Shown: in pieces, positions 51,544 through 55,755 of the stretch | Numbering within the stretch: the stretch's first letter is position 1 | Layout of the letters: each line of letters starts with the position of its first letter | NCBI GenBank assembly: GCA_937921305.1 | Contig: CAKZSU010000006.1 | Coordinates: 70,646 to 134,645 of the forward strand | Length of the DNA stretch: 64,000 bases | Reading direction: 5' to 3' | Source of the DNA: an uncultured Patescibacteria group bacterium | Lineage (GTDB): Bacteria; Patescibacteriota; Microgenomatia; UBA10105; UBA927 | Made by a program: the position numbers and the translations under genes | The notes under the pieces: generated by a model | What the model saw: the letters and a program-made list of their open reading frames with translations, nothing else | Told to the model about the DNA's origin: nothing | Databases searched by the model: none

Positions 51544-54091
51544 ATGGATCAAGAGTTTACAACACCAATGATGAAACAATACGAAGAGATTAAAGCAAAA
51601 TATCAGGATTGTATTGTATTTTATAGGCTCGGCGATTTTTATGAAACGTTTTTAGAAGACGCGCATATTGCTTCTCGCGTTCTTGATATCACCCTGACGA
51701 CACGAAGTAGAGGAAAAGACGGAAGAACCCCTATGGCTGGTCCCATACCACGCCGCCGATTCATATATCGCAAAACTTATCAAAGCAGGATATAGCGTCG
51801 CAATCTGCGAACAAGTGAGTGAACCAAACAACAAAGGACTCATGGAAAGAGAAGTGGTGCGTGTCGTAACTCCTGGCACAATACTTGACGAAAAAGCTCT
51901 CGACAAGAAGGAACACAACTTCATTGCAAGCATTGTATTTGATTCACATGCTCTTGCTATAGCATTCTCAGATATTTCCACTAGAGCGTGTTATGTTATC
52001 GAACAAAAAAAGGAAACATCAAAGAATTATTGCGAAATCAATTAGAACATATTCACCCCTCCGAATGTGTGATATCAGAAGATGACTATAACAATCCTGA
52101 ACTTCTAAAACTTCTGACAGAAGAATATAAAGGAAACATCGCATGTTTTAAAGAATGAAACACGATCGCTGCGTCAGCGGAATCATTTTAAAATACCATT
52201 TTCGTGCGCATTCCCTTGATGTATTTGGCATAGCGGATAACCATCGAAGCGTAAAGGCTGTAGCTGGACTCCTTGGATATCTTCAAACAACGCAAAAAGA
52301 TTCTGTGAAACATATCACAACAATACAAACAGAACTCGACAATGATCATGTGGTCATGGACAAATCAACACTTATCAATCTTGAATTATTTTCAATGATC
52401 AGAACCAACAAGAAAGAACAAACGCTTATTTATGTTCTCGATGAAACACAAACCGCGATGGGCGGACGCATGCTTCGTCAATGGATACGAAAACCATTGA
52501 GAAATATCAAGGATATACAAAAACGACAAGATAGTATTGATTTCTTCATTAATCATCCAACAATTCTTTCTGATATACGAGAAAAATTATCGCACGTAAC
52601 AGATATTGAGCGAATTCTTTCAAGAATATCTCTTCGAGCAGAAAATGCTCGAGACCTCGTGAACTTTAAACATGTGCTATCAACCGCGCTTTCAATAAAA
52701 CACGATACACAAGCAATACAAGAAATACTTATCAGCGAGATAACATCATTCATAGATGATTCACTCGATCATGTCATTGCGATGATTGATAAAACTATCG
52801 TTGATAATCCTCCAATAACAATAAAAGAAAGAGGAATAAAACGAGGCGTGCATACCACATTAGACATGCTTCGCGATCAAGTAGGAGGAGGAAAAAATGG
52901 CTTTCACAACTAGAAAAGGAGGAACAAGAAAAAACAGGCATAGGATCATTAAAAGTAAGGTATAACAAGGTGTTTGGATTTTATATAGAAGTGAGCAAAG
53001 CAAATCTCCATCTTGTACCACATCACTATATACGAAAACAAACTCTTGTGAACGGCGAACGATTTATCACGCCTGAATTAAAAAGAAAAGAAGAAATGAT
53101 CCTTTCTGCTGAAGAAAAAATACAAAGGATTGAATATGAATTATTTCAAGAAACTGTTGATCACATCATGCAACACTTAGATTGTTTAACAAATCTCGCA
53201 TATATCGCTGATGTGTACCACTATGCTAAACCAAAAATGACAGAATCTGATGAAATCATCATCAAAGAAAGAAGACACCCTGTTGTAGAACGACATATAA
53301 AAGATAAACAGTTTGTTCCAAATGATTTAACGCTTTCCTCTCAGCATCAACAACTACTCATAATCACTGGACCTAACATGACAGGTAAATCTGTATTTTT
53401 CGCCAAGTAGCCCTATTGTTCTCATGGCGCACATGGGATCATTTGTGCCAGCAACTGAGCAACGATAAGCATCGTTGATAGAATCTTCGTTGAAGCGGCG
53501 CGTCAGACGCTATCACGTCAGGACTCTCCACATTTATGGTAGAAATGACAGAGACCGCGTATATTCTTCGTCATGCAACAGAAAAAGCCTGATCATTATA
53601 GATGAAATAGGACGGGGCACAAGCACATACGATGGAATCTCCATCGCATGGGCGGTAGCAGAGTATCTTGCGACAACACATGGCAAACAAGCGAAAACAT
53701 TATTCGCGACACACTATCACGAGCTAAAAACCTTGAACATCATTACTCTGGACGAATCAAGAATTTTCATATGGAAGTTATTAAAAAAGATGGACAGCCT
53801 ATGTTCCTTCACACACTTTTACCCGGAGCCGCGTCAACGAGTTTTGGCATTGATGTGGTAAATATGGCAGGATTGCCTCACGAAGTTATTCACAAAGCAA
53901 AAATACTTCTTCAAACATATGAATCGTCCCATGCTCCACAAATTCATACGGAATCACATCATCATGTAAATTCTTTAGAACAACAAATACGATCAATAGA
54001 CATCTCGAGAACAACGCCGCTCCAAGCGCTCACTATCCTCGCGTCTCTGCAAGAACAAATTCTCTATGAAAAACATACACAAACTCCCTGA
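51544..54091 (+). pseudogene. mutS: DNA mismatch repair gene mutS, fragmented by >=6 frameshifts/stops
   Basis: Recognisable MutS segments lie in different frames: [14 protein letters not shown]...[11 protein letters not shown]...PMAG | (shift) [24 protein letters not shown] | [19 protein letters not shown] | domain III ...AVAGLLGYLQTTQ... | GFYIEVSKANLHLVPHHYIRKQTLVNGERFITPELK | ITGPNMTGKSVFF | [26 protein letters not shown]...FATHYHELK | ...[32 protein letters not shown]. The first break occurs in a non-homopolymer context (GGTCCCATACC). Confidence 0.8.
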
Positions 54092-55755
54092 TCATCTCAT
54101 TCGTCAAATCGCTGCGGGAGAGATTATCGAACGACCTGCATATATCGTCAAAGAATTACCTGATAACGCGATTGACGCTCATGCGTCGCAGATAACTATT
54201 CATCTTGATCATGGTGGTTTGCAAAAAATCACTGTGATTGATAACGGCGATGGCATGAGCCAAAAAGATATCAAAGAATCATACAAACTTCATACAACAA
54301 GCAAAATTCATAATAGAGAACATTTTCTAGGAATTAAAACGCTCGGTTTTCGGGGAGAAGCGCTCGCAAGCATTGTGGCAATCGCAAATCTCAAAATAGA
54401 AAGCAGAACAGCGACCGATCACCGAGGAACACAAGTAGAAATCATCGATGGTAATCGATATATCAAGCCAATCGGCATGCCAAAAAGAACACGAGTCACC
54501 GTTGATTCAATTTTTCAAAAAGAACCAGTCCGAAAACATCTGTTTCATACTCCTCACAAAGAATTGCGATATATCATGGATATTCTCATAAGATACGCGA
54601 TCTTCTACCCTGATATCGCATTTGAATTATTCCATAACAATCATCGAATACTGTCCGTTAGAAAACAAACAAATGAAGAACGCATCAAATCTCTTCTTGG
54701 AGAACATGTCTTTTCTTATCTTCTCCCTATCGCTATAACTGATAGCATAGTTTCCTTTCATGGATATATTGACAAACCTCAAGCAGCGACGATCAAAGCA
54801 CAAGAATATCTCGCTATCAATGGAAGACCTGTGTCAATAAAACTCTTTCATAAAGCAATCCATGAAGCATTTGATACACTCATTGAATCAACGAATCGAC
54901 CCATGTATATACTCTCATTCTCTATTCCGCATGAGTATGTAGATATCAATGTTCATCCACGAAAAGAATATGTAACTTGTATGTATCAGGAAGCACTTTA
55001 TTCAAAAATAATAGATTCAATAAAAGAAACATTCTATCGTCACAATATTCAACTTACCTTTCCATTAATTCAAGAGTCGTCGCCAAGCTATGAAAAACCA
55101 TTGTTGCAAACAACACTTGCTCATGAATTAAAACACGCTGTTAATAAAAACGACGTACATTCTAAATCCTAGCAACGCGCCAATTACCTCTATCCACAAC
55201 CTGTATCTTATCACGCAATCATCAGACGGACTGATTATTCTTAATCAACACGAGGCGCATGAACGAATTCTTTATGAGGAATATCTGAAAGAATTTACAA
55301 AGGAACAAAAGAAGCATCGCATTGCACATCTTAAACAGCACCTTGCCTTTGCTCTTTCCCCTGCGGAGTCAATGATATTTGATAACTATCTCCATGATTT
55401 ATCACGTATCGGTTTTTCAATAACGCGCATATCTCAAATAACCTACCAAATTCTTAAAATTCCAAAAATTTTTGAACAACGGGATATTCTTACTCTAATA
55501 AAAGAAATTCTTGAAGAACTTGATAAAGAAGTATTTATTCCGTCAATAGACTCCCAAAGCAAACGACTTCTTGCTTACCTCGCATGCAAATCATCGGTAA
55601 AATCCGGAGGTCCGCTGACAGAAGAACAAATGAAAATGATCATGAAGAAGATCAAAAATATTCCGAGGGGAGTTACCTGTCCTAATGGAAGACCAGTGTA
55701 TATCGAGATGTCATTACGCGAACTTGATAAACTCTTCAAGAGAACACATCACTGA
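54066..55755 (+). pseudogene. mutL: DNA mismatch repair gene mutL, N-terminal ATPase and C-terminal dimerisation domain in different frames (single frameshift near 55130-55175)
   Basis: N-terminal ORF (54066-55172) has LIRQIAAGEIIERPAYIVKELPDNAIDA...GFRGEALASI (GHKL ATPase). The second frame from ~55130 encodes SNAPITSIHNLYLITQSSDGLIILNQHEAHERILYE...ACKSSVKSGGPLTEEQMKMIM...VTCPNGRPVYIEMSLRELDKLFKR, the MutL C-terminal domain. The break lies near an A5 run. Confidence 0.65.

Follow-up and report, generated by a model that had tools for sequence, protein, structure and literature searches.

Probable decay of the mutS-mutL mismatch-repair operon in an uncultured Patescibacteria group bacterium

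Remains of mutS and mutL

The 64-kb stretch of DNA analyzed here, called the window below, comes from an uncultured Patescibacteria group bacterium, and its positions 51544 to 55755 carry what is left of the two genes of a mismatch-repair operon, mutS and mutL. A preliminary description of the window had placed these genes correctly, and had stated that mutS was broken into at least six frames and that mutL required one shift. The latter was found again, and the former proved to be true and understated: ten frameshifts could be counted in mutS, and both an in-frame deletion in this gene and the loss of catalytic residues in MutL had been missed. The two genes are arranged as follows.

51544-54091, plus strand: probable mutS pseudogene, domains I to V in order, with 10 frameshifts and one 39-nt in-frame deletion
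54066-55755, plus strand: probable mutL pseudogene, its start and the mutS stop overlapping over 26 nt, which is also the case in the sister contig L168 (see below)

No single open reading frame (ORF) was found for the MutS protein of about 850 aa. Instead, Pfam profiles matched along seven overlapping or abutting ORF pieces of the plus strand between 51544 and 54091 (MutS_I, MutS_I (end), MutS_II/III, MutS_IV, MutS_V and MutS_V), the longest of which is 252 aa. The frames were traced with a frameshift-aware dynamic programme against intact MutS and then rebuilt manually. Frame changes were located at 51740/1, 52006, 52155, 52892, 53398, 53415, 53459, 53492-3, 53586 and 53735. At nine of these junctions the neighbouring segments overlap by exactly one base, that is, one base is missing, while the first junction lacks two bases (or has one too many). 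This first break had been described as lying in a non-homopolymer context (PMAG), which we confirm, two nucleotides being needed to restore the frame. The mutS lesions, all on the plus strand, are listed below.

51738-51742, lesion 1: frame 1 to 2, PMAG|VPYH; restored by +2 nt (GGTGTC to GGTC) or by -1 nt; outside a homopolymer
52005-52011, lesion 2: frame 2 to 1; A7 run, one base missing
52152-52157, lesion 3: frame 1 to 3, CFKE|MKHD; one base missing; the length fits sister MutS as a single event
52892-52898, lesion 4: frame 3 to 2, GGGK|(K/N)WLSQ; short of one base, in an A6 run or beside it
53174-53179 (about 53177): in-frame deletion of 39 nt (13 codons), within a MutS core-domain helix whose length is invariant
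53396-53400, lesion 5: frame 2 to 1; T5 run just 3' of Walker A, GPNMTGKSVF|FRQVAL; one base missing
53413-53416, lesion 6: frame 1 to 3, RQVAL|IVLMAH; one base missing
53457-53460, lesion 7: frame 3 to 2, VPATE|ATISIV; GG reduced to G by the loss of one base
53491-53494, lesion 8: frame 2 to 1, DRIFV[R]SGASD; a conserved Arg codon short of one base
53582-53586, lesion 9: frame 1 to 3, after HATEK; A5 run, one base missing
53726-53736, lesion 10: frame 3 to 2, HYHELK..|EHHYSG; short of one base, from the A5 run at 53726 or from TTG|GAA

Once the frames were joined, the rebuilt MutS of 851 aa had no in-frame stop. It aligned over its whole length (residues 3-847) with an 872-aa MutS at 49% identity, and matched the two closest intact MutS from end to end, without a gap at any junction. 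The Phe-X-Glu mismatch-binding motif (GDFYE), Walker A (GPNMTGKS) and the Walker B/DEIGRGTS region are all present. The in-frame deletion stands out against the reference proteins, since the segment at about 53177 counts 23 residues in 72 of the 73 full-length MutS references and 24 in the remaining one, compared to 10 in the window.

For mutL, Pfam profiles of the GHKL ATPase N-terminal domain and of DNA_mis_repair were found on 54066-55172, and two halves of the dimerization domain MutL_C on 55174-55755. Frame 3 ends at a stop at 55170-55172, and the carboxy-terminal domain lies in frame 1. As no ATG, GTG or TTG is present in frame 1 before 55372, this domain cannot be made on its own. Three features of the gene, all on the plus strand, were retained.

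within 55131-55172 (variable linker): single shift from frame 3 to frame 1, by +1 nt or -2 nt
55243-55278: degenerate endonuclease motif, NQHEAHERILYE in place of DQHA(X)2E(X)4E
55678-55695: degenerate metal-site motif, CPNGRP in place of CPHGRP (H540N, found in the window only)

The leading Asp of the DQHA(X)2E(X)4E motif is of critical importance to MutL's nuclease activity, and the DQHA and CPHGRP-type motifs form its metal site (PMC10366529). In the window, DQHA is changed to NQHE by D393N and A396E, two substitutions absent from the relatives: D and A are found in all four relatives from the candidate phyla radiation (CPR), and the two columns reach a conservation of 95% or more in 40 references from outside the CPR. 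The H540 column is His in at least 95% of the same 40 references, and also in the relatives L169 and L003, L168 and L004 being gapped there. Since these endonuclease-motif residues (D393N, A396E, H540N) are replaced, MutL would be crippled even had the frameshift not occurred. Another substitution was noticed in ATPase motif I (54150-54170), which reads DN(A/S)IDA for EN(A/S)IDA, with a Glu to Asp change at the catalytic base position. It is absent from L168 and L003, and is shared with the intact mutL of sister L169 (L169:3675-5348); it is therefore not part of the decay.

Host lineage and intact relatives

The host was placed with the help of SecA, for which an 84%-identical match comes from a Patescibacteria group bacterium, and several of the matches of 69 to 76% identity bear the name Candidatus Gottesmanbacteria or Patescibacteria group bacterium. 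SufB matches gave the same placement, so that the two proteins place the host near Gottesmanbacteria, within Microgenomates.

In a collection of 5.8 billion proteins, all of the 120 best matches to the rebuilt MutS were full length and intact. The best of them (62% identical, 866 aa) sits on a contig designated L168 (GCA_026415875.1), where the order of genes is that of the window: POR, ferredoxin, NifU, SufS, Rieske, SufD, SufB, SufC, PIG-L, Sua5, mutS and mutL, with a mutS/mutL overlap of 26 nt, identical to that of the window. In a second sister, L169, mutS (863 aa) and mutL (557 aa) are followed by a DNA_alkylation gene, then by the same DUF4340 and ABC-transporter (ABC2) genes as those found downstream in the window. 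The mutS ORFs of the sisters are continuous at all ten positions of frameshift. The search for intact mutSL in sister genomes, which the preliminary description had proposed as a check, thus found the pair intact and syntenic in both. Because L168 and L169 hold the intact genes in the same gene order, the broken genes are the orthologous, syntenic copies, and the loss is specific to the lineage of the window.

The SufB-anchored loci of GTDB genomes, which provided taxonomy and control genes, had no mutSL within 10 kb; a scan of genome contigs with the MutL amino-terminal domain gave no match; and a metagenome scan with the rebuilt MutS returned only relatives of at most 45% identity, swamped by a universal motif. 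An apparent intein in the SufB of relatives (2-kb matches) was rejected, as the second alignment segment lay on the neighbouring SufD paralogue.

A first, word-indexed search returned three contigs, L003, L004 and L005, each with a break in mutS within about 40 codons of the 52892 break of the window. They belong to more distant Patescibacteria-like relatives (approximately 40 to 49% MutS identity), and have single mutS frameshifts near the domain III/IV junction, at A7, C4 and A7 runs (L003:9250-9400, L004:1620-1770 and L005:6570-6900, respectively). The L003 site is a formal A_AAA_AAA -1 slippery heptamer, and a GTG overlaps the stop. The idea that mutS is split, or has a programmed frameshift, at a conserved place near residue 436 was considered and rejected: the sites differ, and in an exhaustive search and a search with the full reconstruction most relatives are full length. 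The clustering of the three breaks is probably due to the bias of a fragment query towards targets of fragment length. Recurrent mutS frameshifts in assemblies of this type may nevertheless deserve a systematic count.

Reproducibility of the lesions

The window belongs to contig c_000000188073 (565,362 bp) of ENA assembly ERZ6864144, and the locus is also covered by ENA ERZ6863697 and by two Logan assemblies, ERR9287621 and ERR9287625. All are colinear over 7.1 to 12.8 kb. Compared to the window, each of the three other assemblies has no indel and one single-nucleotide polymorphism (SNP), which makes four assemblies from two pipelines and two sequencing runs in all; the matching Logan contigs are 8.7 and 25 kb long. 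Only two positions differ, 52890 (G/A) and 53173 (A/G), both by transitions and both inside mutS, the former adjoining lesion 4. Given the lengths compared, the chance that both population SNPs land in the mutS pseudogene is about 0.07.

Genes around the operon were then used as a control. Eight flanking genes (POR, NifU, SufS, Rieske, SufD, SufB, SufC and PIG-L) are full length compared to their orthologues, which gives 11 frameshifts in the 4.2 kb of mutSL and none in the 8.4 kb of these genes. Under a uniform rate, the probability of this distribution is (1/3)^11, about 6e-6, and a uniform error process is excluded as the source of the frameshifts. The large housekeeping genes of the window are likewise single ORFs with complete domain sets: SecA (892 aa), Lon (825 aa), an aminoacyl-tRNA synthetase (705 aa), SerRS and RuvB. 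The two immediate neighbours of the operon are also intact.

50513-51481, plus strand: Sua5/TsaC family gene, 322 aa, upstream; same neighbour and same length in L168
55749-56654, minus strand: DUF4340 gene, 301 aa, downstream; same family downstream of mutL in L169, after one intervening DNA_alkylation gene

Relaxed constraint and spectrum of lesions

A three-way relative-rate count was performed on the window and L168, using L169 as an out-group. Unique changes in MutS amounted to 91 in the window, compared to 66 in L168, and those in MutL to 61 compared to 39. For the two proteins combined, this makes 152 compared to 105 (chi-square approximately 8.6), while the same count on the eight flanking proteins, with three close out-groups, gave ratios of about 1:1 (121 v 138, 138 v 135 and 127 v 142). 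Relaxed constraint on MutS and MutL is thus supported by these protein comparisons, although the extra protein change is moderate, and the effect on MutS modest. By our own arithmetic, the excess of about 50 replacements over 1351 sites corresponds to approximately 2% neutral divergence since constraint was lost.

Conserved positions were affected mostly in MutL, which is off consensus at 28 of 98 near-invariant columns in the window, compared to 17 or 18 in the sisters. Of the changes at such columns of MutL, six are confined to the window: G141R, K158H, D393N, A396E, P425H and H540N. The rebuilt MutS deviates at 3 of the 107 columns with a conservation of at least 95%, which is within the range of functional MutS, and one of the three is the Arg codon of lesion 8.

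Among the 12 lesions of the two genes, 11 are best read as deletions. Four to five of the ten mutS frameshifts lie in A/T runs of 5 to 7 bases, which represent 3.8% of the gene, and the others at GG/TT doublets or in plain sequence. Such a pattern is expected as the footprint of replication slippage combined with the general bacterial deletion bias in unconstrained DNA.

Interpretation and alternatives

With a probability that we put at about 0.9, mutS and mutL are true, fixed pseudogenes of a canonical MutH-independent mismatch-repair operon, in a Microgenomates host near Gottesmanbacteria. The ancestral operon had Sua5 on one side and the DUF4340/ABC-transporter genes on the other, an arrangement that two sister lineages keep, with the operon intact. 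In the lineage of the window, mutS has gained ten small frame-shifting deletions and one deletion of 39 nt, and mutL one frameshift and the replacements in its endonuclease motifs. The probable order is that constraint on the operon was lost before the lesions piled up. As no full-length MutS or MutL can be translated, post-replicative mismatch correction would be absent, unless another copy exists elsewhere in the genome. Since the excess of protein change corresponds to about 2% neutral divergence, we infer that the loss has lasted long enough to count as a stable state, and not as that of a transient mutator, yet is young compared to the split from the nearest known sister. The earlier statement that the operon is dead is thus borne out by reproducible lesions, intact syntenic sisters and relaxed constraint.

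Several observations weigh against this reading. The rebuilt MutS fits 104 of 107 near-invariant columns and contains no nonsense codon, so that decay at the amino-acid level is hardly detectable in mutS, and the number of frameshifts in the gene looks high relative to that of substitutions. The frameshifts are also marginally uneven in their distribution, 10 in mutS and 1 in mutL (P approximately 0.03), which may mean that mutS lost constraint earlier, or may be noise. In addition, the visible DNA is 64 kb (11%) of a contig of at least 565 kb, where a second copy of mutS or mutL could lie elsewhere, and the evidence consists of assemblies rather than reads, which leaves room for a minor intact allele in the population. 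The near-untouched residues of MutS would fit a pseudogene of recent origin and a spectrum biased towards transitions. Stop codons would be created by 2.2% of possible transitions in mutS, and by 4.7% of all single-base changes, and the probability of observing no stop is 0.1 to 0.5 for 30 to 100 transition-dominated substitutions; the absence of nonsense codons is, for that reason, not alarming. The doubt that substitutions are too few for ten frameshifts is eased by this probability and by the estimate of excess divergence.

Sequencing or assembly errors, such as deletion-biased homopolymer miscalls in genes that are really intact, would account for the fact that nearly all lesions are single-base deletions, about half of them in A/T runs, which is the error profile of some long-read platforms. 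Such errors would have to recur as identical indels in all four assemblies, across both pipelines and both runs, and in our judgement noisy reads are not expected to yield Logan contigs of this length with no indels and one SNP each. They would also have spared flanks of similar composition that contain many homopolymers. Furthermore, five lesions lie outside runs, and neither the 39-nt deletion nor the substitutions in the catalytic site of MutL resemble indel miscalls. We therefore consider errors to be very unlikely, in line with the earlier opinion on assembly error, which is supported by the same lesions in four assemblies and by the intact flanking genes. It is, in turn, very improbable that the frameshifts are real and that function is kept, by recoding (programmed ribosomal frameshifting or transcriptional slippage) or by assembly of the fragments into a split protein. 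Polymerase slippage in poly(A) or A/T runs can rescue frameshifts in the AT-rich reduced genomes of endosymbionts, as reportedly described by Tamas et al. in 2008. In the window, nine of the ten mutS junctions would be mended in the same way, by reading one base twice (-1), four to five junctions lie in A/T runs, that at 52892 being a formal A_AAA_AAT heptamer, and the amino-acid sequence of MutS is very well preserved. However, ten corrections would be required per molecule, with a yield of about 0.1% at 50% efficiency per site, and at least five sites have no slippery sequence. The sister ORFs are uninterrupted at all ten positions, so that no frameshift is conserved. A functional split protein is in practice excluded, with five breaks of the ATPase domain within 330 nt and most pieces lacking start codons, and the 13-residue deletion and lost endonuclease residues of MutL argue that selection is gone.

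The last alternative accepts the pseudogenes as real, and assumes that the organism is still repair-proficient thanks to an intact mutS/mutL pair elsewhere, for example after duplication or transfer. Redundancy is a common cause of the decay of a copy, and only 11% of the 565-kb contig was visible. A tblastn search of the window with MutS and MutL matched this locus only, though, and none of the 120 best matches to the rebuilt MutS was on the 565,362-bp contig. The decayed locus is, moreover, the syntenic and orthologous one, and a genome of such small size would not usually have mutSL in duplicate. We hold such a second pair to be unlikely.

Mutator inference and other decayed genes

From the loss of mutSL, the preliminary description had deduced a mutator genotype that accelerates gene decay and AT drift. 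This is plausible, but neither acceleration nor AT drift could be seen locally, in a test of low power. The flanking genes have evolved no faster than in the repair-proficient sister (about 8 kb compared; low power, the pseudogenes being young relative to the branch), and their GC content at third codon positions (GC3) is above that of L168 in seven of seven comparisons (0.30 to 0.37 compared to 0.24 to 0.33). Both the rate and the GC3 tests are weak, since the time without repair makes up a small portion at the end of a long branch.

Other pseudogenes had been reported in the window, at a copper locus among others. Two frameshifted genes were indeed found there, in a copper/metal locus on the minus strand (23768-27813) that is partly decayed.

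25751-26641 and 24876-25814, minus strand: copA-like P-type ATPase, split; E1-E2_ATPase profile cut at position 136-138, near a T5 run, one base missing
24093-24668 and 23768-24376, minus strand: DsbD_2 membrane protein, split by a frameshift
27520-27813, minus strand: CsoR-like repressor, intact, adjoining the copA-like gene locus
26924-27505, minus strand: DUF305 gene, intact, in the copper/metal locus

Elsewhere in the window, a stretch of low GC content (24 to 30% compared to about 40% elsewhere) separates two large glycosyltransferase genes at 5717-8593. It contains only short ORFs (91 to 131 aa) without Pfam matches, and about 1.3 kb without any ORF of at least 90 aa; decay or a foreign origin of the DNA are possible reasons. 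An unusual fusion of 705 aa is encoded at 33634-35751 (minus strand), a class II aminoacyl-tRNA synthetase in which tRNA-synt_2 and an OB anticodon domain are joined to a carboxy-terminal HD domain; a lysS had been named earlier in the window, and the synthetase was located at these coordinates. Finally, an ORF of 526 aa (21840-23420, plus strand) had no Pfam match at E <= 1e-5.

Relation to known systems and significance

The genes of the window resemble the MutH-independent systems with a nicking MutL endonuclease of Bacillus subtilis, Aquifex aeolicus and Thermus thermophilus, having the same two genes in the same order with a stop/start overlap, a MutS with domains I to V and their motifs, and a MutL with a GHKL amino-terminal domain and an endonuclease-type carboxy-terminal domain. 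They differ from them in that the frames are not open, and in that MutL has NQHE and CPNGRP in place of DQHA and CPHGRP.

Among CPR bacteria, Saccharibacteria lack MutS and MutL, whereas Gracilibacteria and Absconditabacteria have them (Jaffe et al. 2021, PMC8406219). As in Saccharibacteria, mismatch repair has been lost here in a small-genome Patescibacteria/CPR lineage. Unlike in Saccharibacteria, however, where the genes are simply absent, group-wide at the level of a phylum, the remains are fully recognizable, the sisters are intact at the locus, and the lineage is Microgenomates-related.

Reduced genomes, such as those of insect endosymbionts and of some marine streamlined lineages, are well known to have lost mismatch repair, and natural mutS or mutL mutator strains occur in clinical Pseudomonas, E. 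coli and Salmonella. The same two genes are inactivated in all these cases, often by frameshifts in short repeats. Clinical mutators are usually transient and have one recent lesion, whereas the window has at least 12 lesions and about 2% neutral divergence, which points to a long-fixed state. In contrast to the endosymbionts, neither AT drift nor faster evolution can be seen around the locus. The single-base length changes in A runs, in conserved genes of an AT-rich small genome, recall the poly(A)-tract frameshifts of endosymbionts; compared to those that are rescued, half of the sites are outside runs, the runs are short (5 to 7 bases), and ten corrections would be needed per transcript. 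The case adds one more independent loss of this repair system, in a Microgenomates-related lineage and at the pseudogene stage, and as such is a solid example rather than a new kind. One practical consequence concerns annotation: the bin should be scored as repair-deficient, in spite of seven gene calls for 'MutS' and 'MutL'.

Mismatch-repair loss is recurrent in genome reduction, and is usually seen only as an absence. Here, the remains are still readable beside intact sisters at the locus, so that the loss can be roughly dated and the spectrum of lesions read directly. A full genome, together with reads, could show whether repair loss shifts the patterns of substitutions and indels in a CPR bacterium. 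A bolder and tentative proposal, possible although we do not favour it, is that this is a long-term fixed, mismatch-repair-null CPR population caught soon after the loss, in which the decay of mutS records an unusually indel-heavy, deletion-biased spectrum of mutations that follows the loss of repair in these organisms. If true, it would be a natural experiment on repair loss in an ultra-small genome.

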